Below are positions 3,685-45,094 of a DNA stretch of 64,000 nt, piece after piece; the stretch's first letter is position 1; each line of letters opens with the position of its first letter. The position numbers and the translations under genes were made by a program. The DNA is from an uncultured Gammaproteobacteria bacterium (lineage in GTDB: Bacteria; Patescibacteriota; Patescibacteriia; Veblenbacterales; UBA10138). Location: NCBI GenBank assembly GCA_964348825.1, contig CAYGDX010000002.1:15489-79488 (forward strand). The letters run 5' to 3'. Under the pieces are notes generated by a model that was given only the letters and a program-made list of their open reading frames with translations, searched no databases and had not been told where the DNA came from.

Positions 3685-3955
3685 AGAATTAGCGAGATAA
3701 TATTAACCCAAACCTTAAAAAATGTCTATGCGTATAAAAAATAACTAAATAGACCTAAATGTATAAATCCGAAACTCTAATATCTAAATCCTAAATAAAT
3801 CCAAAATATTTAAATTTCTAATTCCTAATTTCTAAAAATGACTAATATCTAAACTCAAAATCTGAAATTAAATTTTAATTTCTAAATTTTAAACCAATTT
3901 TAAATGACTAAATGTTTTAAAATTAAAAATTTATAATTTAAAATTATCAATTACC

Positions 3956-7679: not shown

Positions 7680-8618
7680 TTATTTAAATATAAAAAACAA
7701 TTGTCCACCCACAAAAATCAAATAAATCAAAAATAAAATTAAACCTTCTACCCGTGTTAATTTTCTACCTGTGGAGCTAAACCAACCAAAAGCCAAAAGT
7801 AATAATAAAGTAAAAAAACCCAACCAAACAAGGTGATTATCTACTATAACAATAAACCCGCGCGGTAGTGCCAAAATACCAAGTACTAAAGAATTACCTA
7901 AAGCACTACCAATTAAATTACCTAAGCTTAATTCTCTCATTTTACGCTTCGTGGCGCGAATGGCTAAGGCAATTTCTGGTAAATTCGTACCCACTGCCAG
8001 AATTATCCAACCCGTAACAACTTGAGTTACCCCAAGTAAATCAGTTAACTCTAAAGAAAATTTTAAAATCAAACGCGCGAGTACTACCACCGCCAAAACG
8101 CCAACTAGTAATAAAGAAATTGTATTGGTTAAAGAACTATTCTCGATTAATATTTCCGGCTGTACTTTTCGACGACTCGTAATAAAACGCCAAGCGAGAA
8201 GTATATAGCCCAAAATTAAAATTATGCCATCAGCCCGCGAAAGATTGCCATCAAAACTTAAAGCCACTGGTAAAATTATAAAAGCACCAACCGCCAAAAA
8301 TTCACTGACATTGAATGAATGTTTAGTTGATAAATCGCCCCGCGCTAAAACGCTAAGCCCTACCACCAACCCAAGGAGTACAATGATTCCACCAGTTAAA
8401 TTACCAAATGATAAAGCGCCATCGCCCTGCGATACAGCTTGTAGGCCGAGCGAAAATTCTGGCAAAGATGTTAAAAGCCCAATCACTAATCCCAAAGTAA
8501 AAATTGGCCACCTAAGGCGCCGCCCAATTTTTTGGGCATTATCAATTACCAAATCCGCCGCCAAACCAATTAAATAAAATAATAGGGCGAGTAAGGCAAT
8601 TAATAATATAATAGACAT
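7680..8618 (-). CDS. Ca2+/Na+ antiporter family (CaCA, YrbG-like)
   Basis: 312 aa. Two alpha-repeat motifs, TSLPEFS and GTNLPEIA (GxSxPE type). Confidence 0.7.
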   Translation of the reverse strand: MSIILLIALLALLFYLIGLAADLVIDNAQKIGRRLRWPIFTLGLVIGLLTSLPEFSLGLQAVSQGDGALSFGNLTGGIIVLLGLVVGLSVLARGDLSTKHSFNVSEFLAVGAFIILPVALSFDGNLSRADGIILILGYILLAWRFITSRRKVQPEILIENSSLTNTISLLLVGVLAVVVLARLILKFSLELTDLLGVTQVVTGWIILAVGTNLPEIALAIRATKRKMRELSLGNLIGSALGNSLVLGILALPRGFIVIVDNHLVWLGFFTLLLLLAFGWFSSTGRKLTRVEGLILFLIYLIFVGGQLFFIFK

Positions 8619-8702
8619 GAGGTAAGTATAGCATGGGATGCGAAGGATGATAATTTTTAAAATCTAAAATAAATCTTAAAATTTTAAATAATATATTTTG
8701 TT

Positions 8703-8860
8703 ACTTCTTTAGTAGAAGTAACCAAGAATCGCAGGCCACAGTCTTCGGGTTTGAACAGTGCTCGTCAAACGAGCTGGTTCAGGCTATGCACAACTACCAC
8801 AGCACGCCCGAACCGGACGCTCGTTTGACTTCCGCTCTGTACAAACCCTACGACGAGGCC
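8703..8860. repeat. GC-rich hairpin repeat, copy 2
   Basis: Same core as copy 1. The flanking palindrome is degenerate (TTACTTCTTTAGTAGAAGTAA). Confidence 0.8.
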
Positions 8861-9007
8861 GCATAACTGCTAATATTTTTTCATTTTACATCGTCATTTT
8901 CCATTTTGATTTTTAAATTTTAAATTAACAAAAATCCCCTGCTGAACAGGAGATTATTGTTCAATTTATGACTTAACAGTGGGCGACCGTTAGTCCTAAA
9001 TTATAGT

Positions 9008-9292
9008 TTACAAAATTGAATCTTTGGCGGCTTTGGCGACACGGAACTTAACCACGGTTTTGGCGGCTATTTTAATAGTTTCGCCAGTGGCCGGATTACG
9101 TCCCATGCGAGCGGCACGGGCTTTCTTCAAGAGTTTACCTAGTCCTGGTACGGTGAACTCACCGACCCGCTTGGTCTCTTTATAAGCCAATGCTACTACC
9201 GCCTCAAGCATTGCTAAAACTTCTTTTCGGCTGTGGCCGGTGGCCTCAGCCAAAGAAGTTAACAACTGTGTTTTTGTCATGCCTTTGGCCAT
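9008..9292 (-). CDS. hup: DNA-binding protein HU
   Basis: 94 aa. MTKTQLLTSLAEATGHSRKEV ... GRNPATGETIKIAAKTVVKFRVAKA matches the HU/IHF fold. Confidence 0.9.
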   Translation of the reverse strand: MAKGMTKTQLLTSLAEATGHSRKEVLAMLEAVVALAYKETKRVGEFTVPGLGKLLKKARAARMGRNPATGETIKIAAKTVVKFRVAKAAKDSIL

Positions 9293-9370
9293 ATTAGTAT
9301 GGGTTAGTTAATTAACAGGGTTTAGTATAGCACAAACCCCAAGAAATGCTAAGCAAATGGTGGATAAGTG

Positions 9371-11938
9371 TCAAGCGGTCTGGCTATGACCAACTGATTT
9401 AATATTAGATTTATGATGACTAAAATATTTATAATAACTAAGTTTAGCCAATTCTGTTATTACCAAATACACCAAAACAATCCCTAAAATAAGGCCTAAA
9501 GTGCCTATTTTAGGCGTGATAAAACCAAACCAGCTTTGACTTATTGGTATGAATGGCAAAATAATAGTGATGATAGTGGCTGAAGCAGTTAACAATATAA
9601 TAATTAAACTCGGCGCTTTTGTACGCCAAAGTGGCAATTTCGTACGTACTGAAAACAGGAAAGCCAGCTCAGTTAAAATACTAGCGATAAACCAATTAGT
9701 TTGAAGAACTTGCGCCCCTTGTCGATAAAATAATCCAAAAAAAATAAAATCAAACACTGTGCTCACTACCCCAATCAAAACTGTAAACAAAGTAATATCG
9801 CGCAAATTATAACTATGCGGCTCGGCTATTTCACTAGCATCAACTGTATCACTCGCTATTGCCATCATTGGAAAATCACTCAATAAATTAAGTAATAATA
9901 ATTGCACTGGTAGCATTGGTAAAAAATCAACCAATAAACTCGCCACCGCCACGGCGTAAAAATTACCAAAATTAGAAGTCATGGTAGCCTTGATGTACTT
10001 TACCGTGTTAGCAAAAACTAAACGGCCTTCTTTAATGCCATCAATTATAACGTGCAAACTTTTTTGAAGTAGCACAATATCAGCCGCCTCACGCGCGATA
10101 TCGGAAGCATCGCTTACCACCATACCAACATTAGCCACTTTAAGTGCGGGCGCGTCGTTGATCCCCTCACCTAAAAACCCAACTGTATATTTTCTTTCTA
10201 AAATTTCTATTAAACGAAATTTTTGTTCTGGGTTCAGCCGCGCAAATACTGAATAATTTTCCGCCGCTCGCCTTTGCTCAAGCGGACTTAACTGCCAAAA
10301 CTGTTCACCAGTTAAAACCTTGCTCGCATCAGACACCAAACCAACTTCCTTGGCCACTGCGCCAGCTACCTCCGCGCTATCACCAGTTAGCATTTTCATT
10401 TTCACACCTAAACTGCCGGCCGTTTTAACAGCTTCGTGGGTTGTGGATTTGATTGGATCCACAAAAGAAACGGCGCCGACCAAACTAAAATCTTTAAGCT
10501 CATTTAATTTATTATCAGCCGGTGCGACTTTTAAATTTTTTTGTGTAATAACCAACACGCGACGTCCCAACACGCCTTGAGCCTTTACCCAAGTATTTAA
10601 TTCTTCCTCTTTTTCAGCCGCACGTTTTGATAATGATTTGATCAGCACTTCAGCCGCGCCACGCCTTACTAATTCAATTTTTTTACCACGCTGCCACACT
10701 GAAGTATGGTATTTAAGATGCGGATCAAATGGAATATCTATCAATCTTTTTAAATCATCAATATCTTTTTTATCTTTTTCTGCTAAAGCGCCCCAAAGCG
10801 ATAAATCAAAAGCATTGTTGCTAGTGACTTGTTTAGATTGAATTGGCGGTGCCACAGCGGCCGCGCGAAACAGTACTTCAGTACGTGACATTTCCGGCGC
10901 GTAAACTTCCGCCAAAGTTAATTTATTTTCCGTTAAAGTGCCAGTTTTATCAGTACAAAGCACTTCAATTCGCCCCAAATCTTCAATCGCCGATAGTCGC
11001 TTCACCACCACTTTATGTTTAGCCAATCGTAAAGCACCGTGGGCTAAAGAAAAGGTGGTAACTACTGGCAACCCTTCCGGAATTACACTAACCGCCAGCG
11101 CTACGGCAAAAATTAATAAATCTGGTAAATTAACACTCGCACCTTTGATAATTAAATTAGCTACCACCACGCCAACTAAAGTTATTAAAGTTAATTTCAG
11201 CACAAACTTACTAAAACGCCCCATATCTTGCGCAAAACTACTACGCCGACTAGTTTCCGAAACCAACTTACTCACTTCACCTAGGGCAGTTTGTGTGCCA
11301 ATATTAATTACTACTCCTTCCGCCCGACCACTTACCACTGTGGTGCCAGTAAAACACAAATTACTACTAGCCCAGATTTCTTTCGGCGGAACTTCTAAAA
11401 CTTCAATTGATTTTATTTGAGGCACGGCTTCACCAGTTAAAACTGATTCATCAATTGTAAAATTATCAACTACTACTAAGCGAACATCAGCGGGAATAAT
11501 ATCGCCGGGTTCGAGTATTATTAAATCACCCGGCACAAGTTCATTGGAATTTATTACCACTTCTGTACCATCACGCAAAACCTGCGAACGGTGTTCTACA
11601 TATTGGCTAAGCAATCGTAAGGCATGCTCAGATTTATATTCTTGATAAAAAGAAAGGGCGGCATTTATTAAAATAAAAGCCGCAATAAATACGCCGTCAA
11701 TCCACTCGCCTAAAAATAAGGCGAGTAACCCAGCCGCCACCAATAAATAAACAAACGGCGATTTAAATTGGCGAATTAAAATTTTTGGCCAAGTAATTTT
11801 TTCACTAGCAACTAAATTTCGACCATAAGTTTGCGCCCGCAAAACCGCCTCATTTGAAGAGATACCACTTTTTAGATTAACTTTAAGTTCACGTGCGACT
11901 TGATCAATACTTTGAGTTGAATATAAACTAAGATCCAT
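9371..11938 (-). CDS. cation-transporting P-type ATPase (P2/P3-type, Mg2+/Ca2+-like)
   Basis: 855 aa. CTDKTGTLTENK phosphorylation motif, TGDS, and [11 protein letters not shown] hinge. Confidence 0.9.
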   Translation of the reverse strand: MDLSLYSTQSIDQVARELKVNLKSGISSNEAVLRAQTYGRNLVASEKITWPKILIRQFKSPFVYLLVAAGLLALFLGEWIDGVFIAAFILINAALSFYQEYKSEHALRLLSQYVEHRSQVLRDGTEVVINSNELVPGDLIILEPGDIIPADVRLVVVDNFTIDESVLTGEAVPQIKSIEVLEVPPKEIWASSNLCFTGTTVVSGRAEGVVINIGTQTALGEVSKLVSETSRRSSFAQDMGRFSKFVLKLTLITLVGVVVANLIIKGASVNLPDLLIFAVALAVSVIPEGLPVVTTFSLAHGALRLAKHKVVVKRLSAIEDLGRIEVLCTDKTGTLTENKLTLAEVYAPEMSRTEVLFRAAAVAPPIQSKQVTSNNAFDLSLWGALAEKDKKDIDDLKRLIDIPFDPHLKYHTSVWQRGKKIELVRRGAAEVLIKSLSKRAAEKEEELNTWVKAQGVLGRRVLVITQKNLKVAPADNKLNELKDFSLVGAVSFVDPIKSTTHEAVKTAGSLGVKMKMLTGDSAEVAGAVAKEVGLVSDASKVLTGEQFWQLSPLEQRRAAENYSVFARLNPEQKFRLIEILERKYTVGFLGEGINDAPALKVANVGMVVSDASDIAREAADIVLLQKSLHVIIDGIKEGRLVFANTVKYIKATMTSNFGNFYAVAVASLLVDFLPMLPVQLLLLNLLSDFPMMAIASDTVDASEIAEPHSYNLRDITLFTVLIGVVSTVFDFIFFGLFYRQGAQVLQTNWFIASILTELAFLFSVRTKLPLWRTKAPSLIIILLTASATIITIILPFIPISQSWFGFITPKIGTLGLILGIVLVYLVITELAKLSYYKYFSHHKSNIKSVGHSQTA

Positions 11939-12290
11939 AAGTATATCTTATACCATCCAAAATAAAAACGCCATGTGATTTATAAATTTCTAATCTCTAT
12001 GAATGACTAAGGCGTTTAAATCCTAAACTCTAAACCCTAAATCCTAAACAAACCCAAAATTCTAAATTCAAATGCTTAAAACTTTTTTAGATTTTAGTCA
12101 TTAGGATTTATTTAGAGTTTAGATATTAGGATTTCGGATTTTTGAGGAATTGACCATCATTCTACTTTGCCCCACTACTTAACAAAAGACTCTTGCTTAC
12201 CAGATTTGACTCCAAACCTCTACCGTATTACGTTTAAAGTAAATAAAATACAAATCAATATTCATCAACAAAATAAAAAGGAATGCAAAA

Positions 12291-15077
12291 ATGACACATC
12301 GTTATTTAACATTTTTTACATCACTTTTAATTATTATTTTAACACTCACCGACACAAAAACTTTAGCGCAAACCACCACACCGTTTTACTATGATCGCTT
12401 TGACACCAATGCTTTCCAATTGGTCGGACAAACCACAACCAGTCGTGATCGCATTCGACTTACGCCCGCCCAAGGTAGTAAAAAAGGTGCTATTTGGGAT
12501 TCAACCAAACAAGTTGTAAGCAAACAATTCACAGTTACTTACAAACTTCAAACTAAATATCAAGATACTAGAACTCGCGGCGCCGATGGTTTGGCTTTTG
12601 TAATTCAAAACGAAAAAATTAATGCCATTGGCTACGATGGCGGTAGTATGGGCATCAACATTACAAATAGTGTGGCTTGGCCTTGGGATACTTACTATAA
12701 TGTTGAATATGGTGATCGTAATCGCTTTCACTTGTGCTTACTTACCCGTGGCACTTTAATCAACAACCCCAACCATACCAACGCAATTTTTACTAGTGGT
12801 AGTTTAGCATCCGCGCCTGATACTAATATTCATTTAATTCGCTTAACCTATAATTACGGCAAAATAAAAATTTATTTTGAAGATACTACGCAGGCGTTGG
12901 GTACGACTTATTTGAATTTAAACACTGAACTAAATTTGGATTCTGGCCGGGCTTGGGTGGGCTTTACTGCCGCCACCGGTGGAATTGGCTGGCAAACTCA
13001 TGATATATTATTTTGGTCGTTTGACACTTTAATCAGGCCTCTTCACGAACCAGTAATCATAATTGGCGGTATTATGACTTCCCCACTTTATGATTCAGAA
13101 GATAGCATACTACTTGCGACTGAAAAAATCTGGGCAGACAAAAATCATTTACTCGTACAGCGTGATGATTTTTTACAAGTACTGGAGCTTGCTTCCGACG
13201 GCATAAATCCAGCCCAAAGTAATTATCAAATTAAATTTCCACCCCTTGCCACTACTCCACAAATTCCCACCTTGCAAAATGAGTTAGCCCGTTTACCATT
13301 ATCAACTTATCAACCCTTAGTTCAAGAACTAACTTTACGTGAAAAATATGTCTTGGATAATGGCGATAGTGATCACGGTGAAATGGAAGATTTATTTATC
13401 TTCACTTATGATTGGCGGAAAAGTGCGCAAGTTAATGCTCAAAGATTAAATTTATTGGTGGATAGCGTAATTAAGTGGACAAATTATAACCAAGTAAAAA
13501 TCGTGGCGCACAGTTTAGGTGGTTTGATTACTAAATCTTATGTGGCAGAGTACGGTAGCGATAAACTATCACGAATTGTATTTACTGGCACACCACATTT
13601 GGGCGCGCCGAAAATGGGTTACGTACTTTTAAGTGGCGACCTGATGGGACTATTGGGGTTCGCTGTAAATCACGAAATGATTAAAAATTTAGCGCGAAAT
13701 TTTCCCAGTGCTTATGAATTATTACCCAGCGCTAATTGGTTTAATTTCAGCGGCAATGGCCAAACTTTGAATTCTAATTTATATGGACAATATTTAATAG
13801 CGTCTCGGCAAACTTTGAGTAATTATCCAGCGACGATGAATTATTTAGTCAGGCGACAATTAAATGATGCCGCGGAATTTAACTCGGCACTAATTAATTC
13901 AGCTATCACTAATCAAAACTCTTGGACCAATGTAAACTTTGGCGCTACGGAAATTTATAATGTAGTAGGTTGTAATTTACCAACACCGGGCAGTATTATT
14001 ATTACTTCAGCAAACACTGTACCAATACTTAATTTAAACGGTGATGGTACGGTACCACTTGGTAGTGCGGAAGGAATTAATGATAATTCACGCGCCACAA
14101 TTTATTTATCTAGTGTAAAACATGATGATTTGTGTGCGAATGAAACTGCTGTAAAAATTATAGCTAAATTATTACGCAAAGTAGCTGACACAGTAACGGC
14201 TGGCTACCCATTGGCAAGTACTGTACCGCCAACTAGTTACGGCATAAATACAACTGCTACGCGAGTTGGTTCGCCAGTACTACTCCACGCTTACGATGCC
14301 GAGAATAACCACACTGGCCCAATTAACGATACAACCTGGGAAGCGCAAATTCCGGGGTCAAGTTTTGTGAGCGGTCCTTTGAACGATCCTGAGGCCAGTA
14401 AAATTATTTTACTACCCGCTGGTCAATCTTATCGCACCACTATTACTAATTTACTTGATACGGTATCTAATTTTGATTTATGGTCGCAAAATAATAGTAG
14501 TAATAACGCACCGCAAATAGCCATCTTTAATAATTTAACTTTAGAGAATGGCTCGTCAGCCGCGCGGAGTGATATAAATGAAACCGCGAGTGATTTGGAA
14601 ATTGATCAAAATGGCGATAATGATTACGAAACGATTATTACACCCATTACCAATTTTTCTAAATTACTTGATTCGGGTTGGAATTTAGTTGCCCTGCCAC
14701 TTAAAACCGGAAATGACAGCTTGCTCTCAATTTTTCCAAGCACTCTGCCTTATGGTTTTAGGTTTAATGGGCAATACATATCGAGTGAACAACTTGATTC
14801 AACTAGTGGTTGGTGGATAAAAATTAAAAATGACAACGCAATTGATTTAATTGGACAAAATTTCGCCTTAGACACAATTAATTTAATTAGTGATTGGAAT
14901 TTAATCGGCATTGGTTCAAAGTCAAAAATCGCTACCGAACTCAACACTCTACCGAACGACTTACTCAACAGCCAGTTCTTTAAATACCAAAATGGTTACT
15001 CACCGACTGACACTTTGTACCCTGGCTTTGGCTACTGGATAAAAGCTAAGCAAGCGGGGCAAATAATCCTGCGTTAA
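12291..15077 (+). CDS. secreted L-type lectin domain / alpha-beta-hydrolase (LCAT/PGAP1-like lipase) fusion protein
   Basis: 928 aa with a signal peptide. N-terminal legume-lectin-like block (RIRLTPAQGSKKGAIW ... ADGLAFVIQ). Central lipase nucleophile-elbow motif VAHSLGGLI followed by FTGTPHLGAP. The C-terminal ~350 aa is unassigned. Confidence 0.65.
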   Translation: MTHRYLTFFTSLLIIILTLTDTKTLAQTTTPFYYDRFDTNAFQLVGQTTTSRDRIRLTPAQGSKKGAIWDSTKQVVSKQFTVTYKLQTKYQDTRTRGADGLAFVIQNEKINAIGYDGGSMGINITNSVAWPWDTYYNVEYGDRNRFHLCLLTRGTLINNPNHTNAIFTSGSLASAPDTNIHLIRLTYNYGKIKIYFEDTTQALGTTYLNLNTELNLDSGRAWVGFTAATGGIGWQTHDILFWSFDTLIRPLHEPVIIIGGIMTSPLYDSEDSILLATEKIWADKNHLLVQRDDFLQVLELASDGINPAQSNYQIKFPPLATTPQIPTLQNELARLPLSTYQPLVQELTLREKYVLDNGDSDHGEMEDLFIFTYDWRKSAQVNAQRLNLLVDSVIKWTNYNQVKIVAHSLGGLITKSYVAEYGSDKLSRIVFTGTPHLGAPKMGYVLLSGDLMGLLGFAVNHEMIKNLARNFPSAYELLPSANWFNFSGNGQTLNSNLYGQYLIASRQTLSNYPATMNYLVRRQLNDAAEFNSALINSAITNQNSWTNVNFGATEIYNVVGCNLPTPGSIIITSANTVPILNLNGDGTVPLGSAEGINDNSRATIYLSSVKHDDLCANETAVKIIAKLLRKVADTVTAGYPLASTVPPTSYGINTTATRVGSPVLLHAYDAENNHTGPINDTTWEAQIPGSSFVSGPLNDPEASKIILLPAGQSYRTTITNLLDTVSNFDLWSQNNSSNNAPQIAIFNNLTLENGSSAARSDINETASDLEIDQNGDNDYETIITPITNFSKLLDSGWNLVALPLKTGNDSLLSIFPSTLPYGFRFNGQYISSEQLDSTSGWWIKIKNDNAIDLIGQNFALDTINLISDWNLIGIGSKSKIATELNTLPNDLLNSQFFKYQNGYSPTDTLYPGFGYWIKAKQAGQIILR

Positions 15078-15097: not shown

Positions 15098-15136
15098 AAA
15101 ACCCGAACAAAATATTTGTTCGGGTTTTTTATTTTT
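15098..15136 (+). terminator. rho-independent terminator
   Basis: AAACCCGAACAAAATATTTGTTCGGGTTT followed by a T-run, immediately after the 12291..15077 CDS. Confidence 0.8.
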
Positions 15137-15217: not shown

Positions 15218-15952
15218 TTATTCCATCTTACTTCTCTTCTTTTTCCTATGGTTTGTATTCAAATATTTATCCTCAACGAAATAATTAACAGCATAAATAA
15301 AACAAACTAGTCGCCACCAAAATTTGCTTATTTCTTTATAAGTTAAATTATCTCCAAAGCATATTTGGTGTACGTACTCATGTCTCTTTTCAAATAATGT
15401 TCCTACCTGATTTTTCCAATCTGGCAAATTAACTTTTAAGTGTAATTTTGTAACAGAAAAGAAATTTTTCTCTACCTTATTTAATCTATGTTGATGGTTT
15501 TCAACTTCTTCTAAAAAATTGCATTTCAATAGTTTGGAAAAAAATGAATCAATCGTTGTTAAATTTTCAAAAAGCCGATCAATTCCAATTAATTCGCTAA
15601 TTCTAATCGGCTTTCTTGACTTACGTGTTCTTAAGAGTTGATAAGCTTCCCAGATTGTTATTTTTTCTTCCAACAGTTTTTCTAAACCATCATTATTTTT
15701 AATAATCTTTATGTCAGGAATATTTTTTAGAAGATCTTTGAAATAAACTTCCGCGGCTGTAACTAAATTTATTACGTAATTTTTTCTAGCATTAATTTTT
15801 ATTGTTTTAGTTTTTGATTTTTTTTCGACTAAGTAAACTAGCCCTACAGACTCAGCAACCTTTTTGTAAAAAGTTGTAATTGCCTCAGGGCCTCTCTGTT
15901 TAAAAAAATTTCTTTCCTTTTCGATTTTTTTAAGTGCATCTGATAAATTCAT
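15218..15952 (-). CDS. hypothetical protein with C-terminal Rx4H (HEPN-like) motif; third gene of the candidate defence island
   Basis: 244 aa, AT-rich codon usage. FEKRHEYVHQ fits the HEPN Rx4-6H signature. No other recognisable domain. Confidence 0.4.
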   Translation of the reverse strand: MNLSDALKKIEKERNFFKQRGPEAITTFYKKVAESVGLVYLVEKKSKTKTIKINARKNYVINLVTAAEVYFKDLLKNIPDIKIIKNNDGLEKLLEEKITIWEAYQLLRTRKSRKPIRISELIGIDRLFENLTTIDSFFSKLLKCNFLEEVENHQHRLNKVEKNFFSVTKLHLKVNLPDWKNQVGTLFEKRHEYVHQICFGDNLTYKEISKFWWRLVCFIYAVNYFVEDKYLNTNHRKKKRSKME

Positions 15953-16192
15953 AGTAAAATTTTATGTCACCTAACATCTCGGGATATCTGATGTTTGCCG
16001 TAGCGTAGCGGAGACAAATATGGGTGGAGGCTTTTGTATAAAAGCCGTAACCAGATATGCCGTGTTATATGATGTATGCTTTTCTTTTTGTCTCGCCTCA
16101 GCGAGACCACTTTTCTGTAATGAACAAATTTTATTTTTGTCTTGGCGAAGGGGCAGAGGGGCTGGGGGTGAATGCCCCGAAGCCAAGACTCC

Positions 16193-17677
16193 TTATTTTC
16201 TTTCTAATTGCCACTTGTAAACTCTTTTAAGCTCATAAACAGTTATTTCTTCATTTTCTTCACATTCTCTCCCTAATTGTAATTGGATGTTATTCTTTGT
16301 TTTCCATGGATCCATTGAGCTTTCCAACAAGTCTTTTATTTTTGATTTAAAAATATTCGTTATTTGAACATAATTCTCGTCCGTTTCTTGGTCATCAATT
16401 AATATAACATCCTTGGGCTTCAAAAAGGAGTATTTATCGTTTATTTCATACAATGTATCAAATTGATATTCTTTAAATTTTTTTTTACTTTCTTCGTCCA
16501 AAATTATTTTTTTATCTGTATAGATCTTAGAAAACTTACCTTTCTTGAATGTTTTTGGAAAAATGTTAACTCTCTTATACTCATCTGTTAAATTTATCTC
16601 TTTACCATTTATTTTAAGTATGTTTCTGCAGCCTGAAAAAGGCCCCATATCTCCTAGAAAATCCACATAGAGATGTGGAAAATCACAGTAAGTATCCCCC
16701 TTGTCATCAATTAATGCGATGTCGGAGTATTTTATCAAACAATCAATAGTAAAATGACCTTTGTGTTTTCGTGGCAGAAAGTCCCAAAAATCATCGACGA
16801 GTTCTTTATTATCAGATATTTTTTTTCTCTCATCGTTATTATGCTCTCGTTGCAGATGAATCAAATCTACTTCTTTAGTAAAATCCCATTCTTTTTTTTC
16901 TGTGTCTATGTATGCAAAATATTCATGATTATGACACCATAGGCCTACTGGGTGATGACTAAATGCAACATATTCCTTCCAGCGAGGCTTTGTCTCAAAA
17001 TCTTTGTACTCCCGTTGATATGGATAATTTGTATCTTTAAGATCTCTCACTAAAACTGACTTATAAAATTGATGGCCTTCCCCAACGGTTCTGAATAATT
17101 TATTTTTTATACTTACCGCCGATCTGATTTCTGCTGTTTTGGACTTTCTTTTACTTACCAGTGAAATGCCAAAAAATGTGAAAAGTATCCTGTCATTTTT
17201 TGGTAAATGTAGCATGTCTTCCAGCTCTGCCTTTCCCCATAGATAAAATTCCATTACACCTTTTTCTCTAAGTTCTTTACGGAATATATCATATGATTCT
17301 TTAGAAAAATTAGCAGACGCGGCTAAGATATACCCATATGGCGGATTTTTTGCATCCACATCAGAAAGAATTGATTTTATTTTTTTTGGACCTATTTCTT
17401 TTTCTCTTTTTCCTTGAATCATCCATAAGTTTCCCTCCATAGGATGAATCAGTTCTTCTTCGACATTATTTTCGTTTTCGGAAGTAGAAATTATTTCAGC
17501 TTTTTCATATGCACGAATATCAAACCCACTATCGCTTCCGCTTCTCCCAGTAGCTTCAATATTCTGCCAATCTTTAAAATCATATATTAATTCTCGAATT
17601 AAATCCTCAAAGCGATGGGGGTCTAAATCCTCAAAATGTATGGGGTTGTATGTTCTTGTGATTTTAGCTTTTGCCAT
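16193..17677 (-). CDS. Mrr-type restriction endonuclease (PD-(D/E)xK) N-terminal domain protein with unknown C-terminal domain
   Basis: 494 aa. The N-terminus follows the Mrr_cat profile order: FEDLIRELIYDF ... ATGRSGSDSGFDI ... WMIQGKRE ... YILAASANFSKESYD ... EFYLWGKAELEDML. The C-terminal ~300 aa is unassigned. Confidence 0.6.
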   Translation of the reverse strand: MAKAKITRTYNPIHFEDLDPHRFEDLIRELIYDFKDWQNIEATGRSGSDSGFDIRAYEKAEIISTSENENNVEEELIHPMEGNLWMIQGKREKEIGPKKIKSILSDVDAKNPPYGYILAASANFSKESYDIFRKELREKGVMEFYLWGKAELEDMLHLPKNDRILFTFFGISLVSKRKSKTAEIRSAVSIKNKLFRTVGEGHQFYKSVLVRDLKDTNYPYQREYKDFETKPRWKEYVAFSHHPVGLWCHNHEYFAYIDTEKKEWDFTKEVDLIHLQREHNNDERKKISDNKELVDDFWDFLPRKHKGHFTIDCLIKYSDIALIDDKGDTYCDFPHLYVDFLGDMGPFSGCRNILKINGKEINLTDEYKRVNIFPKTFKKGKFSKIYTDKKIILDEESKKKFKEYQFDTLYEINDKYSFLKPKDVILIDDQETDENYVQITNIFKSKIKDLLESSMDPWKTKNNIQLQLGRECEENEEITVYELKRVYKWQLERK

Positions 17678-17746
17678 ATTTCTTAATTAATTGTGCTTTT
17701 TGGAAAATGTGGAGAGGTGAATGCCCCAAAGTTAAAGCTACTTCTT

Positions 17747-19951
17747 TTATCCTTTAGTGATCTTTTCAAGTTTACACTTCGGACAAGTGTATTTCGAATT
17801 AGTTCTGTCATTTACGCTTGACTGCCACTCATGGGAACAATTTGGGCAATGCCAAGATATTTTAATTCTGGAGCCACAAGTCATTAAATCAGCCGAATAA
17901 CCTTGTTTATCATTTTTTTCTTTGTCCCAATATTTCATTAAAATGGGATATTTTTCTTTTACAGACCCTCGATTTTTTAAGATCGTCTTTTTATAGGTAT
18001 CAGTTGATTTTTTTATACCACATAGCGGGCAACTACTTAAATTTCCTGTGGTTCTGTTTGCAATAGCTGTATTCCAAGAATGACCGCAAGTTTTACAAAT
18101 CCACCAAACTTTAATTTTACTGCCCGAATGAATTGTATAAGGATCAATATCTTTGTTTTTTTGAAAATCCCATTCTTTCATCAATTGCGAATTTTGATTT
18201 GCAATACTTTGACAAAATGGACACGTACCTTCACCTTTGCTTCTACTTTTGATAGTTGCTTCCCATTTGTGTCCTTTTATACATTTCCACCCTACTCGTT
18301 TTGAACTTCCTGGCGGATACTCCGTGGGTTCTTTTTTGTTTACCTCATAATCCCATTCTTTTAATAATTCAGGATGTTTATTTGCGAAAGTTCCAGTCTT
18401 TTTTATTCGTATCCCAGTTGCCCTTTCACTTCTATTGTTATTCATACAAATTGGACAACCATAGCCCTTTCCAGTTCTACTTCCAACAGAAGCTATCCAA
18501 CTATGACCAATTAGACACTTCCAATTAATCTTTAAAGAGCTCCCAGCGGAAATTTTATTAGGACTATATGTGTTCATTTCGTAATCCCATTCTCTTAACA
18601 TTTCTGGATGGCTCTGTGCGAATGAAATTCCCTTTTTTGTCAGCAATGATTTTCTCAAATTATTTCCTGCGTTGTCTCTATAGCAAATAGGGCAACCGGA
18701 GTTTCTTTTATGTCTATTTTTTATTGATGCCTCCCAAATATGTCCAAGTTTACATTTCCAATAAACTTTTTTCTCTGAATTTGCAGTAAACATATCCGGA
18801 GTCAGTGGATTGTTTTTTGCAAAATCCCACTCTTTAGCTAGTTCAGGATTAATAAATAGTAAACTTTCTTTCTCTGTTGGTGCTGGTAATAAAGATAAGG
18901 TTTTTTTGAATTCATTTTCTCCTATTTGAATTCTATCTAAAATATATTTATCAAATTTAAGTTTTGGATTAATTTTAGAAATAATTTTTAATACACCGAT
19001 CACTAAGTCAATATATTGAGTTTTTTTATCGTAGAGAACAACATCACCATCTATTTTGGGTAACAAAGAATCTCTAACTCTAATTAGATAAATATTGTTG
19101 TCCTTAAAAATTTTATGTTTTATTAAATCTCTTTCAAGTTTATTGTCGTGCCAATATGCACCATCGATTTCAATCCCAAAACCGTCATTTTTTAAAAGGA
19201 TGTCACATTCGTACCCTTCAATTTTTGACCTCCATTTAACATTTTTGAAAAGTTTACTCATTTCGCAAAGAATAAACACCTCTAATTTTGATGTTGAAGA
19301 TTTACAAAAAGGACAACCGCTATTATTTCCAGTTCTGTTATATATTTGGGCTTCCCATGTATGCCCAAATTTACATTTCCAAAAAGCATTTAAATTACTA
19401 TTAGGTGAAATATCATTGGGGTCTATTTTATTTTTAGCATAATCCCACTCAGTTAATAATTCTGGATGTTTTTTAAATAGAATTACTCCTGTTTTTTCTA
19501 ATCTAGCCTTCCTTATTCTTGCACCCTGATTTGTCCTAGAACATATAGGGCAACCATCGCCTCTAGATCTTCTTTGTGGGGTAGATTGCCACTCATGATC
19601 TTCTTTACATTTAAACCAAAAAAGTAAATGACTTTTCTCCGAGACACTTTCTGGTCTTAGATTGTTTTTAAAATAATTCCATTCAGATAATAGTTCTGGT
19701 TTTGCTTGAGCAAAAGAGAGTCCTTTCTTTAACTTACTTTTTCTTATATTTTCATTTTTTATTGGACTGTTGCATATTTTGCATCCATTACTTCTAATTC
19801 GACTAAAAAACGATACATGGTACGTATGTTCCTTTTTACATTTCCACCAAATCTTCTTTGTGCTTGTTTTGGATAGAATAGAAGGGTTAATACCAATATT
19901 TTTTGAATGGTCAAAGTCCTTTAAAATTTTTGAAAAATCTTGTTTTTCCAT
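17747..19951 (-). CDS. multi-zinc-ribbon (DUF4379-like W-C-GH-W-GCP-C repeats) protein with central DUF559/Vsr-like endonuclease domain
   Basis: 734 aa. About 10 repeats of the pattern (H)PEL..EWDY.KN ... W.C..GH.W ... GCP.C. A central block, YECDILLKNDGFGIEIDGAYWHDN ... RD ... IRVRD, matches the DUF559/very-short-patch-repair PD-(D/E)xK fold. Confidence 0.6.
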   Translation of the reverse strand: MEKQDFSKILKDFDHSKNIGINPSILSKTSTKKIWWKCKKEHTYHVSFFSRIRSNGCKICNSPIKNENIRKSKLKKGLSFAQAKPELLSEWNYFKNNLRPESVSEKSHLLFWFKCKEDHEWQSTPQRRSRGDGCPICSRTNQGARIRKARLEKTGVILFKKHPELLTEWDYAKNKIDPNDISPNSNLNAFWKCKFGHTWEAQIYNRTGNNSGCPFCKSSTSKLEVFILCEMSKLFKNVKWRSKIEGYECDILLKNDGFGIEIDGAYWHDNKLERDLIKHKIFKDNNIYLIRVRDSLLPKIDGDVVLYDKKTQYIDLVIGVLKIISKINPKLKFDKYILDRIQIGENEFKKTLSLLPAPTEKESLLFINPELAKEWDFAKNNPLTPDMFTANSEKKVYWKCKLGHIWEASIKNRHKRNSGCPICYRDNAGNNLRKSLLTKKGISFAQSHPEMLREWDYEMNTYSPNKISAGSSLKINWKCLIGHSWIASVGSRTGKGYGCPICMNNNRSERATGIRIKKTGTFANKHPELLKEWDYEVNKKEPTEYPPGSSKRVGWKCIKGHKWEATIKSRSKGEGTCPFCQSIANQNSQLMKEWDFQKNKDIDPYTIHSGSKIKVWWICKTCGHSWNTAIANRTTGNLSSCPLCGIKKSTDTYKKTILKNRGSVKEKYPILMKYWDKEKNDKQGYSADLMTCGSRIKISWHCPNCSHEWQSSVNDRTNSKYTCPKCKLEKITKG

Positions 19952-22813: not shown

Positions 22814-24997
22814 TTATAGTTTAAATCGTTTGAGACGTAAACTGTTGCTAACGACACTAACACTTGATAAAGCCATCGCACCTGCGGCAATAATCGGATT
22901 TAAAAATCCAAGCGCCGCGAGTGGCACGGCCGCTAAATTATAAACAAAGGCCCAAAATAAATTTTGTTTGATAATCCGAAATGTCTTTTTAGTTAAATAC
23001 AGCGCTTCGAGTACTTTAAGTGGACTGCCTTGCATTAGCACCATACCGCCGGCCTCAATCGCAATATCAGTACCAGTACCCATCGCGAGGCCTAAATCAG
23101 CTTGTACCAAAGCGGGCGCATCATTTATACCATCGCCCACAAAGGCAACTTTTAAATTTTCGGCTTGTATTTTTGCCACTGCCGCGGCCTTCCCTGCTGG
23201 TAAAATTTCAGCTAAGACTTCGGTAATACCAAGTTGCTTGGCAATGGCTTGACCAGTGCGCAAATTATCACCAGTCATCATTACCACCCGAATATTTTTT
23301 TTCTGCAAGGCGGCAATGGTAGCAATTGAATCATTTTTAATGGCATCAGCAATCGCAATCAAGCCCATCAATTTATTATCTTTTGCTACACCCACCACGG
23401 TTTTAGCTTCGGCTTCAAGCTGTCCAGTTGCGCCCTCAACATTCCCCAACACCACACCTTCATTTTTTAACCAACGTAAATTTCCCACTCTGATTTTCTT
23501 ATCACGAAGCAACGCACTTACGCCTTGACCAGAAATATTAATAAAGGATGACACTGTTTCACTTGCCAAATTTAAACTCTCGGCTTTATTTGCTACCGCT
23601 TGTGCTAAAGGATGCTCAGATAATTTTTCTAGAGCGTAGGCTAATTTTAAAACCGCTTCAATTTGGTAATCTGCTTGGGGCACAATATCAGTTACGATTG
23701 GTTTGCCTTGCGTTAAAGTGCCAGTTTTATCAAAAATCACAGCTTGAATTTTACTGCCTCGTTCTAAACTTTCAGCATTTTTAATTAATACACCGCGCTT
23801 TGCGCCAGTGCCAGTTGCCACCATAATAGCAGTTGGTGTGGCCAAACCTAAAGCACACGGACAAGCAATTACCAGTACCGCCACCGCCGACATTAAACCT
23901 TGATTTAAGTCACCGGTTGTAAAATACCAAACCGCTACTGTAGCCGCCGCGATTACCAAAATAATCGGCACAAAAATTCCGGAAATTTTATCAGCCAATT
24001 TTTGAATGGGCGCTTTTTTAGTTTGCGCTTCACTTACTACTTTTACAATTTGCGCCAGTACTGTGCCTTCGCCAACTTTTGTTACGATAATTGTAAGCAC
24101 TCCATTGATATTTAAAGTGGCACCAAAAATTTCATCACCTATTTTCTTACCCACTGGCAAACTTTCACCAGTTAACATTGATTCATCGACACTTGACTCG
24201 CCACTTAACACCTTGCCATCAATTGGAATTTTTTCACCGGGCTTAATTAATAATTTATCACCAATCATAACTTCCTCAATCGGCACTTGTTCTTCCTGAC
24301 CTTGTGCATTTATTCGCCGAGCGGTTTTGGCACCAAGTTCTAATAATTTTTTAATCGCCGCACTGGCTCGCCCCTTACTTTTAGCTTCTAAATAGCGGCC
24401 AAGTAAAATAAAGGCGGTGATAATTGCGCCGGTCTCAAAATATAATTCCATCCCACTATCAAACAATATCCACCAACTATAAAAAAACGCTGCTAAAGTT
24501 CCCAGTGAAATTAGCGTATCCATATTGGCACTAAAGTAGCGTAAACGCTTAAGTAGTCCTAAGTGAAATTCTAAACCAGTAACTATAATTACTACACTTC
24601 CTAAAATTGCTTGTAGCCACAAAGATAAATCGCGCTCCCAAAAATTCCAACCCAATTTAATTTCCGCCATAGCCAACACCGCTACCGGCACAGCTAAAAT
24701 TAAAGCGGTAATGGCTTTGTTTTTAATCGCTAAAATTTCCGCTTCATCTGCCGCATGATTATGCTCATCGTGTTCTCCGTGTTCAGTGTGTACTGCAACC
24801 TTGTAACCATTTTTAATCACTGCTTGATGTAATTCGTGTTCAGAAATTTTTGTATCATCAAATTCCACTTGGGCTTTATTTAAGGCTAAATTCACTACCG
24901 CTTCGGTAACACCCGGTAAACTATTTAGACTTTTTTCATTACGCACTGCACACGAAGCACAATGCATACCTTGAATATTAAAAGTAATTGATTTCAT
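22814..24997 (-). CDS. copA: copper-translocating P-type ATPase
   Basis: 727 aa. N-terminal HMA motif GMHCASC, a CPC motif in TM6 (ACPCALG), DKTGTLT, and GDGINDAP. Confidence 0.9.
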
Positions 24998-25044
24998 ATA
25001 AAAATACTTATTTGCTAATTTCGTTAAATTAACAAATAATAAAA

Positions 25045-25320
25045 TTAGACTCGATTGGATTGCTGGTAAATTTTCACAAGCTCCATGGTGGCAAGTTTTG
25101 CACCATCTTTTTTATGAAATTGATGCGCCACATGAGTTTTTAAATGATTTTCAAGTAACAAGCGTTCTAAACTTTTAAGCGCCTCACGCATGGCGAAAGA
25201 TTGCTCGAGTAGTTTGGTACAATAATCCTCGCGTTCAATGGCGCGGCTCAGGCCATCCAACTGACCTCGAATTATTTTCGCGCGATGAAGTGCACGTTTT
25301 TTGATTTTTTGGTCAACCAT
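25045..25320 (-). CDS. csoR: CsoR/RcnR-family metal-sensing transcriptional repressor
   Basis: 91 aa. [28 protein letters not shown] shows the DUF156 layout with the Cys and His ligand positions. Sits directly upstream of copA, co-directional. Confidence 0.8.
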
Positions 25321-25925
25321 AAATGTTAAGTTAAGAGTAAGAGCAAAGAGTAAGAGTTAATTTTAAATCCGAAGCACTAAATACGAAATCCGAAAATTTA
25401 GAATTTCGATATTCGCCTGCCTGCCGGCGAGGCAGGGATTTGGGATTTTTGTTATATACCCATTACCCCTATATCCTATTATAAGAAATACGACAAAAAT
25501 TGTCAAATGGGGTATCCACTTAAGCAACTAACCGATAATAAATATTAATCCTAGCAACGAGATAGCCGCCACGCCTGAAGCCACTCCAAACCAAAAAGTG
25601 AGTACGGGTGAGGCCTGAAGCCACCAACTCCCCTCATTTGAGGACGTGGGAGTATTATCAAAGTCGGGATCAAAAGTAATATGGGACATAATTAATTAAA
25701 ATCACTAATGACTAATATCTAATTTCTAAAAATCACCAAAACCTAAATCACAATTACTAAAATTAGTTATTAGACATTTTTAGAAATTAGTGATTAGAGA
25801 TTAGAAATTAAAACTCCTCTAAACTCCCGCCTTCCTCCTTCGCCAGAGGCTTCGGAAGGACAAGCCGCGGGAATGACCCCACTTCGCTTTTAGCTACGCG
25901 GGGCAAGCAACTACGCGCTACTAAC

Positions 25926-27563
25926 TTAACTTTTCGCCACCACTACTATCTGCCCTCGGTACATTCCCATTCCACAACTAAAAGTATAGCTCCCCTGTGC
26001 TTCGGGTGTAAAGGTTACTACATTATCATCTGTTGGGCGCAAAAATACTGGTTTCACTCCCAGTCGTGGCGCTTGTAAAACTGTTACGCAACCTTGTGCT
26101 CCGCGCGCATCTATCTCCCACCGCGCTGGCACACCCACTTGCAGTGTAAAAGAATCAGGCGCATAACCACCAGTAAACACTTTCATCTTCATTACTTGCT
26201 CACGACCATTAAAAGTTACATTGGAATCTTGAGCTGAGTCGGCCTGACTGGTTGACCAAAGCGCTGATAATTTTATTGGATAACCTAAAACTGTTAAACC
26301 ATTTTGAATATTCCATAGCCCGAGCACAAGTACAGTAGCACCAGCTAAACTAAAAAACCAATCACCTAATTTACCTTTGAGTGAGCCCGACACAAAACCA
26401 AGGGCGAGTAGTGCTGGTGCGGTACCCAAAGCAAAAACTCCCAAAATAACACCACTAGTTAAAGCGCTGCCAGTTGTTAGCGCATAAAGTTGTAGAGCTT
26501 GCGTAAAACCACAAGGCAAAAAGAAAGTACCGCCACCTAAAACAAACGGCACATACCACTGCGGTTTTCCTTGCGCATCCATTAATTTATGACCAATATT
26601 TTTTGGTAAACGCGGAATTATTCGCTTTAACCATTGGGGCGCTAAATTTAACATTTCAAGTCCCATTACCAACATAAAAATTGCGGCGAGTAGTGTAATT
26701 AAACCAGTTACCCAAGGCGCGGGCGTTAAAATTTTACCAACTAAACCAATCACGGCGCCGAGTAATGTATAACCAACAATCCGCCCCGCAATAAATAATA
26801 GTACCGGTTGGAGTTGACGCAACTTACTCGCATTTTGATATTTAGCGCGAAATGTACCAATCGTAGAAAGCATCAACCCACCAGCTACTGCCAAACAACT
26901 GGAGCTCGCTGCTACCAACCCTAAAATAAATACCGCCATTAAACTAGTAGAATTAATCGCCCCAACCGCCGGACTAAGGAAACCAAGGCGCGATAAAAAT
27001 CGGCCAACTAACAAAACAATTACAAACAAGCCAACTAATTTCCAAAAACTTGGGCGAGTGGAAACTTTATCTGCTTGATTTGATTGTTGATTAATATGAA
27101 GCACTTTGTATTCACTCTCACCTAAAGATTGTTGTAATTCGCTGACTGATAACTCTGCACCACTGCAAGTAATTTTAGCACGGCCAGTACTAGAATTAAC
27201 GCTAACTTTTTCTACGCCCGGAAGCTCGCGCCAACAACGTTCTACTGTCAACTCACAACTCCGACAATGCATACCTTGAATTTGCACCTCAACTACTTGA
27301 TGTGATGGCTGACTTGGAGCTGACGCTGGCACTTCATTTTTCAACACTTCAAAACTTAAATTAAATTCTACAAAAAGTTTATGCAACACTTCGGTGGTAA
27401 TTTCGTGTTCAGAAATTAAACGCACTACATTTTTTCCACGATTAACATCTATTTTTACCACCTTAGGTAAATTACGTAAAATTACTTCTACTTTCGACCA
27501 AACGACATTATCCAACTCCCCATTTAAACGAATTTTCTTAAGATAAATTTGTTCTTGTGACAT
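25926..27563 (-). CDS. HMA-domain / polytopic membrane (CcdA/TauE-like) / C-terminal cupredoxin-like fusion protein (copper handling)
   Basis: 545 aa. HMA motif GMHCRSCELTV, about 8 TM helices, and a C-terminal beta-rich domain ending FSCGMGMYRGQIVV. Confidence 0.55.
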   Translation of the reverse strand: MSQEQIYLKKIRLNGELDNVVWSKVEVILRNLPKVVKIDVNRGKNVVRLISEHEITTEVLHKLFVEFNLSFEVLKNEVPASAPSQPSHQVVEVQIQGMHCRSCELTVERCWRELPGVEKVSVNSSTGRAKITCSGAELSVSELQQSLGESEYKVLHINQQSNQADKVSTRPSFWKLVGLFVIVLLVGRFLSRLGFLSPAVGAINSTSLMAVFILGLVAASSSCLAVAGGLMLSTIGTFRAKYQNASKLRQLQPVLLFIAGRIVGYTLLGAVIGLVGKILTPAPWVTGLITLLAAIFMLVMGLEMLNLAPQWLKRIIPRLPKNIGHKLMDAQGKPQWYVPFVLGGGTFFLPCGFTQALQLYALTTGSALTSGVILGVFALGTAPALLALGFVSGSLKGKLGDWFFSLAGATVLVLGLWNIQNGLTVLGYPIKLSALWSTSQADSAQDSNVTFNGREQVMKMKVFTGGYAPDSFTLQVGVPARWEIDARGAQGCVTVLQAPRLGVKPVFLRPTDDNVVTFTPEAQGSYTFSCGMGMYRGQIVVVAKS

Positions 27564-43411: not shown

Positions 43412-43611
43412 AAAAATATAAATTTCTAATTTCTAATCACTAATTTCTAAAAATAACTAAATTGTTTAAATCCTAAACTCTAAATCTTATTCATCAGAAC
43501 ACTAGAACATTCAAACATTAGAACATTATTAATAAAAAACTTTTCTGTTTTTATGTTCTAGTGTTCTGATGTTCTAATGAAAAACTCTTACTCTTACTTA
43601 ATAATTCTACC

Positions 43612-44595: not shown

Positions 44596-45094
44596 ATTGA
44601 GGCAGTTCCTTAATATCTTTAAGCCCTAAGTATCTTATAAAATCCATGGTTACTTTGTACTTTGGCATAGTGTTAGATGATTCTTCAGTTTCAACTAGCC
44701 CGCGAATTAGTAAATTACGCAAAATCAAAGCACAATTCACGCCCCTGATTTGTTCGAGCTCGGGCTTAGTAAGTGGTCCACGATAAGCCACTACCGATAA
44801 AGCTTCTAATTGCGGACGAGTGAGTTCGCCTAATTCTTCTTTTTTTAAAAACTGACGCACTAAATTGGCTTGCTCGGGTGCAGTAGCTAAAACTGCTTCT
44901 CGGTCGTGAATTAAAACTACTAATCCACTTCCAGTAGTTTCATAACGTGATTTTAATTGTTTGAGACCTTCTTCTACCTCGACTGATTTCACTTCACAAA
45001 GTTCTGCCAAACGCTTTAAACCAATCGGCTTACCAGCGGCGAAGAGGACGACCTCTAATTTTTTGATTAAATCTGATGTTTGATTATTAGACAT
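44537..45094 (-). CDS. scpB: segregation and condensation protein B
   Basis: 185 aa with two winged-helix repeats (VVAYRGPLTKPELEQIRGVN). Confidence 0.8.
   Translation of the reverse strand: MSNNQTSDLIKKLEVVLFAAGKPIGLKRLAELCEVKSVEVEEGLKQLKSRYETTGSGLVVLIHDREAVLATAPEQANLVRQFLKKEELGELTRPQLEALSVVAYRGPLTKPELEQIRGVNCALILRNLLIRGLVETEESSNTMPKYKVTMDFIRYLGLKDIKELPQYEELIQHANLERILAQTSS

Follow-up and report, generated by a model that had tools for sequence, protein, structure and literature searches.

A predicted secreted fusion of an L-type lectin and an LCAT/LPLA2-family hydrolase encoded in a Patescibacteria genome

The 64-kb window analysed in the present work (64,000 nucleotides of contig CAYGDX010000002.1, assembly GCA_964348825.1) contains an ATG-initiated open reading frame (ORF) on the plus strand, given in the ORF listing as 12291..15077, whose 928-amino-acid (928-aa) product combines an L-type (legume-like) lectin domain with a hydrolase of the LCAT/LPLA2 family. 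An earlier interpretation made from the letters alone, referred to below as the sequence-only reading, had placed a secreted lectin-lipase fusion at exactly this position, and the ORF and its length are borne out, as are all four of the motifs that it quoted: RIRLTPAQGSKKGAIW occupies aa 54-69 and YQDTRTRGADGLAFVIQNE aa 90-108, and the lipase motifs VAHSLGGLI and FTGTPHLGAP lie at aa 405-413 and aa 431-440. The protein has five parts, which are a signal peptide, the lectin, the hydrolase, a beta-sandwich and a tandem repeat of ~68 aa (Table 1), and it contains three cysteines in all, at positions 149, 561 and 615. Its gene stands alone on its strand, with minus-strand genes on either side, and the description of it as one of very few on the plus strand holds: of 48 credible ORFs in the window with a length of 150 aa or more, eight are oriented this way. 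No paralog was found in the 64-kb window by tblastn. A Shine-Dalgarno-like motif precedes the start codon, and 21 nt past the stop codon, between convergent genes, comes a hairpin with a T-run after it, in agreement with the earlier proposal that the gene has a terminator of its own.

In the N-terminus a basic n-region leads into a hydrophobic core of 15 residues, the residues T-L-A stand ahead of Q27, and cleavage is predicted between T-L-A26 and Q27. The equivalent N-termini of homologs also end in A-Q, and aa 4-18 form a lone helix of low confidence in the predicted model. These N-terminal sequence features are what supports the signal peptide and the secretion that had been claimed, and the protein appears to be exported by the ordinary Sec route. 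An extracellular location is suggested because the signal-peptide-like N-terminus is joined by the presence of type IX secretion system (T9SS) sorting domains in the nearest relatives. The protein itself, which ends in the tandem repeat, has no PF18962 (Por_Secre_tail) match and no NxPNPF motif, and no LPXTG or other recognised anchor was found in it.

The lectin domain, which the sequence-only reading had recognized as being of the L type, is confirmed by profile, PDB-sequence and fold tests. PF00139 (Lectin_legB) matches with E 7.9e-12 and 45.7 bits (cut-off 26.3), PF03388 (Lectin_leg-like) with 32.3 bits, above its cut-off of 24, and PF18483 (Lectin_L-type_dom) with E 2.5e-21 and 77.0 bits, which is 1.3 bits under its cut-off of 78.3. 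A lectin profile of 13 relatives spans all of pea lectin (E 4e-19) and aligns over the full length of the legume-lectin domain of M. jannaschii (E 2.8e-22), and 117 PDB lectin sequences are matched by the lectin family profile at E <= 1e-5. The AlphaFold model of the domain has a predicted local distance difference test score (pLDDT) of about 85, and Foldseek aligns it with a template modelling (TM) score of 0.79 to 7elv and of 0.65-0.75 to pea lectin, soybean agglutinin, ERGIC-53 and VIP36.

The roles of the binding residues of pea lectin are well established, and their numbering was checked here against the printed profile alignment. The putative sugar-binding residues D99, G117/G118 and N137 correspond to D81, G99 and N125 of pea lectin; D99 is preceded by A98, and A98-D99, G117/G118 and N137 are invariant in five full-length homologs. 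The putative Ca2+ ligands D133, Y135, N137 and D142 correspond to pea lectin D121, F123 (carbonyl), N125 and D129, and H147 is kept, matching pea lectin H136. At the Mn2+ site the window protein and its 94% homolog have Pro (P131) where at least 90% of the aligned relatives retain the Glu (pea lectin E119); D133, D142 and H147 of the site are kept in the window protein. Since lectins of the ERGIC-53/VIP36 type are likewise not known to have this Mn2+ site, the feature marks the legume subgroup and not the superfamily.

The hydrolase domain matches PF02450 (LCAT) with E 1.7e-14 and 54.3 bits (cut-off 21), a family which is also matched by all of the full-length homologs, and it carries the motifs PVIIIGG (oxyanion-hole region), YDWR at 373-376, AHSLGG and GDGTVP, together with His611. 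A hydrolase profile of 15 sequences aligns to residues 5-377 of the 380 residues of human LPLA2 (E 4e-15) with the triad in register, such that Ser408 falls on VAHSMG, Asp585 on GDGTV and His611 on EH, the catalytic His. LCAT itself comes second to LPLA2 in the profile search (6e-14); the sequence alignment with LCAT covers its N-terminal half, and the structural alignment covers the whole LCAT chain. The best structural matches of the whole model are LPLA2 and LCAT, with TM 0.66-0.71 over ~420 columns and complete chains. Among 69 homologs the conservation of the catalytic Ser, Asp and His is 0.99, 1.0 and 0.97 respectively, and YDWR 373-376 is invariant. By these alignments the Ser408/Asp585/His611 triad is intact and the hydrolase complete, and both the sequence span and the whole-chain structural alignment take in the segments from which the membrane-binding and cap subdomains of LPLA2 are built.

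The “LCAT/PGAP1-like lipase” of the sequence-only reading is accordingly upheld in its LCAT part, and its PGAP1 part was rejected: PF07819 scores 16.7 bits against a cut-off of 24.3 and aligns only to 43 residues round the nucleophile elbow, PGAP1 being a member of the same clan as LCAT. That reading had also spelled the elbow GHSLGG in one place, and the actual sequence is A-H-S-L-G-G. LPLA2 gives the sole full-length sequence alignment that includes the Asp and His motifs; the matches to B. subtilis LipA, PhaZ7, PGAP1 and Tle3 are local to the elbow.

The region after the hydrolase, which had been described as about 350 aa of uncharacterised sequence, is shorter, at ~290 aa (aa ~640-928), and consists of two separate domains. 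The beta-sandwich, seen in a confident predicted model, goes with the hydrolase in most of the listed members of the bacterial family. The tandem module has the signature GWNL...G(Y/W)W(I/V)K, gives a self-alignment score of 67 compared to 25.6 +/- 5.2 in shuffles, and is present in 17 of the fetched proteins; it is possibly a binding or retention domain. Scans of 17 homologs assign no Pfam family to the C-terminal 289 aa, the best E value in a PDB profile search of these residues is 0.45, and a Foldseek search of the PDB gives nothing under E 0.08, with only generic sandwiches returned for the beta-sandwich. The “GW” wall-binding module of Listeria and Staphylococcus was considered for the repeats and set aside, there being no Pfam match to it. 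A search of the C-terminal repeat alone against an index of 5.8 billion proteins returned nothing, not even its own cluster, and the distribution of the repeat is therefore taken from an exhaustive representative search and local phmmer. The C-terminus is thus made up of two novel domains with no recognised Pfam or PDB relatives.

Table 1. Positions in the window of the features of the lectin-lipase gene, of its flanking signals and of the segments compared with the sister strain
Feature	Position	Strand	Basis or remark
Palindromic 'CTAAA'-rich repeat, ~130 bp	12010..12145	.	Divergent promoter region, P-type ATPase vs lectin-lipase
Shine-Dalgarno-like AAGGA	12278..12282	+	8 nt 5' of ATG, read from sequence
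Signal peptide (predicted), aa 1-26	12291..12368	+	Sequence features, homolog N-termini
L-type (legume-like) lectin domain, aa ~30-247	12378..13031	+	Pfam, PDB sequence/profile, Foldseek, family alignment
LCAT/LPLA2-family alpha/beta hydrolase, aa ~252-635	13044..14195	+	PF02450, LPLA2 profile alignment, Foldseek
Ser408 codon, catalytic nucleophile	13512..13514	+	Family and LPLA2 alignment
Asp585 codon, catalytic	14043..14045	+	Family and LPLA2 alignment
His611 codon, catalytic	14121..14123	+	Family and LPLA2 alignment
Beta-sandwich, aa ~645-785	14223..14645	+	Confident predicted model
Tandem ~68-aa beta module, aa 790-858 and 859-928	14658..15074	+	Internal repeat, conserved columns
Hairpin terminator	15098..15128	.	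14-bp stem, 5 G-C pairs, T-run after it on + strand
Signal peptide, lectin, first third of lipase	12258-13457		97-100% identity to sister strain
Segment around Ser408	13458-13607		73% identity to sister strain
Following segment	13608-13757		80% identity to sister strain
Remainder of gene before the 14808 block	13758-14807		About 87-93% identity to sister strain
14808 block	14808-14957		100% identity to sister strain
Flanking genes (genome background)			83-93% identity to sister strain

The comparison with a sister strain (window 12258-15077 against L005 449-3268) gives a ratio of nonsynonymous to synonymous divergence (dN/dS) of 0.11, by which measure the gene is under purifying selection, and reveals that the divergence along the gene is mosaic (Table 1). 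The lectin-encoding 5' part is ~99-100% identical in the two strains, compared to a genome background of ~90%, and its synonymous divergence (dS) is 0.012 compared to about 0.4; this near-identity at synonymous sites implies that the lectin-encoding part has been recombined recently; the mosaic divergence likewise points to recent intragenic recombination. In the sister strain a 2-hydroxyacid dehydrogenase gene directly follows the lectin-lipase gene, and in the window three minus-strand genes that are not in the sister strain lie at 15218-19951, with a GC content of 0.32-0.34. These genes encode a 244-aa protein, a 494-aa Mrr_cat-like restriction endonuclease with a weak PADLOC match (PDC-M58A, 8e-6) and a 734-aa DUF4379 zinc-ribbon repeat protein, and the segment is probably an inserted defence-type island.

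The full lectin-lipase architecture is rare, being found in about eight sequence clusters, all placeable ones of which come from Patescibacteria. The lectin-bearing full-length relatives (P0002, P0003, P0004, P0117, which is the L007 protein, and L085) are 35-38% identical to the window protein, and in P0115, P0118 and P0119 the core is likewise present and no T9SS tail follows it. A scan of 185,579 species genomes gave one locus with the full architecture, and the JGI metagenomes gave at least one. The lipase-sandwich core, by contrast with the full architecture, is very widespread, numbering 10,858 representatives when the limit is set at E <= 1e-3 and 385 when it is 1e-30, and its N-terminal partners include L-lectin, LamG, Kelch, FG-GAP, TIG, VWA, CUB and beta-helix domains. 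Members of this lipase-sandwich family often end in a T9SS sorting domain, labelled examples coming from Ignavibacteriaceae and Ignavibacteriales, and one Ignavibacteriales protein has the order sandwich, tandem repeat, T9SS tail. Separate fusions of an L-lectin occur in other organisms with GDSL esterases (P0035, P0044) and with a different PGAP1-like hydrolase (P0013), so that the pairing of a lectin with an acyl-hydrolase is a recurring design. The architecture of the window protein is new, and it is assembled from known families.

In a neighbour-joining (NJ) tree the tail-less, mostly lectin-bearing clade is nested in T9SS-tailed sequences, and because of this nesting the gene was probably acquired from a donor of the Ignavibacteria/Bacteroidota type and the T9SS sorting domain then lost. 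This history is tentative, as is the direction of transfer, since the phylogeny consists of one NJ tree that carries no bootstrap support values. According to a published report, Patescibacteria have often received genes from Bacteroidota (PMC12455944).

The flanking proteins cluster at identities of at least 90% with proteins labelled “Patescibacteria group bacterium”, and the aspartyl-tRNA synthetase (AspRS) is 74-80% identical to sequences from Patescibacteria and Ca. Falkowbacteria. Judged by these protein comparisons the host is a bacterium of the Patescibacteria, or Candidate Phyla Radiation (CPR), whose nearest named relative is Ca. Falkowbacteria, and it is described as an ultra-small groundwater bacterium. 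An identical lectin-lipase protein is encoded on contigs 196 kb and 353 kb in length, and the 94% homolog occurs both in the sister genome and in a 0.2-um sample of groundwater (record “Hain_H52...”). The suggestion in the sequence-only reading that the protein would be of special interest in an episymbiont holds at the level of the phylum, as indicated by the flanking proteins and the AspRS, the lifestyle of the lineage itself being taken from that of the phylum.

The interpretation which we favour, with modest confidence, is that the gene would encode a Sec-secreted, modular, glycan-targeted interfacial phospholipase or acyltransferase from whose action fatty acids would be harvested for a lipid-dependent producer. 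The exported lectin would dock the protein on a glycan-covered surface, which may be the envelope of a neighbour or host, an S-layer, exopolysaccharide or membrane debris; the LPLA2-like domain would then engage the lipid interface and remove acyl chains from glycerophospholipids (as a phospholipase A or a lysophospholipase, or possibly in transacylation); and the freed fatty acids and lysolipids would be taken up by the producer, which probably cannot make its own. On this account the gene would be kept by purifying selection, with its lectin-encoding part recently recombined. Glycan targeting is proposed because the same lipase core is joined to many N-terminal binding domains and because separate lectin-hydrolase fusions exist. 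CPR bacteria generally have no lipid synthesis and are rich in lysolipids, which are thought to come from other cells, possibly by way of phospholipase A (PMC7242380), and Patescibacteria are reported to possess lysophospholipase genes that they have acquired (PMC12455944). A further point in favour is that a cyclopropane-fatty-acyl-phospholipid synthase (CMAS) encoded in the window modifies pre-formed phospholipids. The harvesting of host lipids is plausible, and both it and the delivery of the enzyme to glycosylated host membranes, which had been suggested earlier, are what we infer from these data.

Several observations weigh against such a role. The occurrence of this core in free-living relatives implies a general function outside the cell, for which no host is needed; the architecture is so rare that it cannot be a general CPR solution; sugar binding by the lectin may be altered or weakened by P131 at the Mn2+ site; the episymbiotic lifestyle of the lineage is assumed; and in the six genomic contexts compared there is no conserved transporter or acyl-activating enzyme partner that would link the gene to lipid uptake. 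The most serious competitor, although we consider it rather unlikely, is that the protein acts outside the cell as a generalist lipase or esterase on detrital lipids, tethered by its lectin to a biofilm matrix, to exopolysaccharide or to particulate matter, with no specific host. The very large size of the lipase-sandwich family at E <= 1e-3, the varied N-terminal binding domains of its members in free-living Ignavibacteria, Bacteroidota and others, and the lack of conserved symbiosis-specific neighbours all agree with it. It overlaps heavily with the glycan-targeted harvesting interpretation, from which it differs in the target alone, but enzymes of the LCAT/LPLA2 type are established to be interfacial phospholipid enzymes and not bulk triglyceride lipases, and the near-identity of the lectin part in strains that are ~10% apart elsewhere suggests that the recognition module matters, whatever its target. 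An enzyme of a different kind, such as a polyhydroxyalkanoate (PHA) depolymerase or a carbohydrate esterase whose likeness to LCAT reflects merely the common alpha/beta-hydrolase core, is extremely improbable. Weak small-lipase matches round the nucleophile elbow and weak matches to PhaZ7 (profile E 1.4e-5 over ~50 residues; NCBIfam E 0.042) can be cited for it, but the NCBIfam match to the PhaZ7 PHA depolymerase family (NF050060), which was rejected, scores 13 bits against a cut-off of 450, and LPLA2 alone aligns over its full length in sequence together with the Asp and His motifs.

The destination of the enzyme could also differ from that proposed. As a lytic or antagonistic effector it would damage the membranes of prey or competitors in the manner of Tle-type toxins, with lipid harvest secondary, a possibility for which one can point to the predicted secretion, the targeting domain and the apparently intact phospholipase-type active site, as well as to phospholipase genes of the predatory CPR bacterium Vampirococcus, which are cited in a passage of PMC12455944. 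We regard this as improbable: no immunity or secretion-system genes are adjacent to the gene in the six contexts, export apparently takes the ordinary Sec route, and the match to the Tle3-type effector of the type VI secretion system (PF24322), which was tried and rejected, is insignificant (E 0.1, 12.5 bits compared to a cut-off of 27). Slightly more improbable still is a self-directed envelope enzyme, in which the lectin, the repeats or both would bind the wall glycopolymers of the producer and its own lipids would be remodelled through lysolipids or acyl transfer. LCAT-family enzymes are established to be acyltransferases as well, CPR membranes are reported to be lysolipid-rich (PMC7242380), and the C-terminal repeat could be a wall-binding module; but the repeats match no Pfam GW or other wall-binding module, the sorting domain anchors the T9SS-bearing relatives, so that the variable N-terminal domain is likely to be the outward-facing targeting part, and the L-type lectins of SraP, YwfG and Aap/SasG/Pls bind foreign glycans.

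A more specific version of glycan-targeted lipid harvesting, which we regard as unlikely, would have the lectin read a particular glycan of a host or neighbour (perhaps of the Ignavibacteria/Bacteroidota type, the apparent source of the gene) while the lipase strips acyl chains or produces lysolipids from the membrane of that cell, to the benefit of the membrane of a lipid-auxotrophic CPR cell, with recombinational exchange of the lectin module among strains tracking host specificity. Were this true, such a host-guided lipid harvester would be a first concrete molecular route for lipid acquisition in the CPR. Patescibacteria account for much of bacterial diversity, most of them have no fatty-acid and phospholipid synthesis, and lipidomic data point to other cells as the source of their lysolipids (PMC7242380); a secreted protein that couples predicted glycan recognition to an LPLA2-type phospholipase is a concrete, expressible and assayable candidate for this step, and its lectin domain could act as a probe for the partner organism. 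Given the rarity of the architecture and the inferred nature of its function, it is a good lead rather than a solved mechanism. The work also reveals that secreted LCAT-like proteins of bacteria form a very large and uncharacterised family with swappable targeting domains, and that two conserved domains in this family are without known fold relatives.

Three unrelated arrangements account for the genomic surroundings of the gene, and none of its neighbours recurs in all six contexts; in most of these, opposite-strand genes flank the lectin-lipase gene. A second lineage (L004, L007, L085) shares synteny. Divergently upstream in L007 and L085 lie a VirD4/TrwB-like ATPase (annotated as such in L007, with an ORF of the same size in L085), a 461-aa protein and a 375-aa protein with Sigma70_r4 and HARE-HTH domains, and L004 begins at its Sigma70_r4 and HARE-HTH gene; DnaX is found downstream in L004 and L007, with an ORF of the same size in L085. 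Directly upstream in the window, at 7680-11938, are genes for a P-type cation ATPase (Cation_ATPase_N/C type, 855 aa), HU and a member of the Na+/Ca2+ exchanger family, and a second ATPase of the Cation_ATPase_N/C type lies at 59167-61854. A similar P-type ATPase occurs two genes from the L003 homolog and is not found in L004, L007 or L085; a link between a Ca2+-dependent lectin and the adjacent ATPase and exchanger genes was considered and is treated as a probable coincidence.

The palindromic repeat in the divergent promoter region contains inverted repeats of 25 nt with 88% complementarity and folds as RNA at -29 kcal/mol (z = -2.15). This partly palindromic intergenic element is dispersed, recurring almost unchanged at 45094-45210 and in part at 3755-3880 and 43411-43500, and the 12-mer TAAATCCTAAAC has nine matches with at most one mismatch compared to 1.05 expected. 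The repeat is also present in the sister strain at another locus (L005 10284-10387). It may be a mobile element resembling repetitive extragenic palindromes (REP) or miniature inverted-repeat transposable elements (MITE), or a shared regulatory site, and it may or may not belong to the lectin-lipase gene.

Elsewhere in the window, three genes of like orientation in the plus-strand segment 31293-36409 encode an ABC exporter (ABC_membrane and ABC_tran), a 589-aa PPDK_N-like protein and the CMAS protein (E 6e-70), a lipid-modifying enzyme in a phylum whose members usually cannot synthesise fatty acids. Near the L004 homolog there is a small gene that matches CMAS weakly, and a PAP2 phosphatase is also encoded in the window. 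A copper/heavy-metal cluster at 22814-27563, which comprises an HMA-type P-type ATPase and a 545-aa HMA-DsbD-cupredoxin fusion, is kept in the sister strain. Two adjacent genes for class-II (D/K/N-type) aminoacyl-tRNA synthetases of 472 and 442 aa lie at 48233-51246, the first being AspRS-like by the names of its homologs, and two divergent SIMPL/DUF541 paralogs of 272 and 261 aa lie at 56451-58318.

Among characterized enzymes, the hydrolase most resembles lysosomal phospholipase A2 (LPLA2, PLA2G15) and lecithin:cholesterol acyltransferase (LCAT), with which it shares the PVxxxPG N-terminal strand, YDWR, the (A/G)HSxG elbow, GDGTV and the catalytic His at an identity of about 18%. The two lid-loop Cys residues of LPLA2, which lie in an N-terminal insertion and form a disulfide in the animal enzymes, have no counterpart in the window protein; this disulfide characterises the animal subgroup rather than PF02450 as a whole. 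Unlike LPLA2 and LCAT, the window protein is bacterial and predicted to be Sec-secreted, has an extra beta-sandwich after the hydrolase, and carries in addition a lectin and a novel repeat at its C-terminus. The B. subtilis enzymes LipA/EstA and also PhaZ7 share the A-H-S-x-G-G elbow and the strand and helix that flank it (profile E about 1e-11 to 1e-5, ~55 residues), but they have neither the LCAT-type insertions nor the GDGTV motif. A search of the literature on bacterial LCAT-like enzymes or the archaeal legume lectin found nothing directly relevant. The T9SS-sorted LCAT-like proteins of Ignavibacteria and Bacteroidota (for example P0116, P0121, P0132 and locus L010) have the same core at 33-41% identity and share the lipase, the beta-sandwich, the tandem GWNL/GYW repeat and the plan of an N-terminal binding domain; they differ in their Por_Secre_tail end, a sorting domain which the Patescibacteria clade does not have, and in carrying Kelch, FG-GAP/TIG or LamG domains in place of the L-lectin.

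The lectin domain has the same fold as the legume lectins (pea lectin 2bqp, soybean agglutinin and ConA) and the M. jannaschii protein 7elv, with TM up to 0.79, and it has in common with the legume lectins the Ala-Asp pair, the GGxxG loop, the DTxxN...D...H metal/sugar loop and the GFTAATG strand. The Mn2+ region reads AWPWDTYYN in the window protein, against AxEFDTxxN, and the legume lectins are free and oligomeric, whereas the window lectin is one domain of an enzyme. An extracellular L-type lectin module is also displayed by the Gram-positive adhesins SraP, YwfG and Aap/SasG/Pls, in which it binds foreign surfaces or glycans (PMC9999234), and adhesin lectins are matched here both structurally (4m00, 7yl5/7yl6) and by sequence (7yl4). 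These adhesins are non-enzymatic, wall-anchored proteins with long repeat stalks, whereas in the window protein the lectin is joined to a lipase that is predicted to be catalytic.

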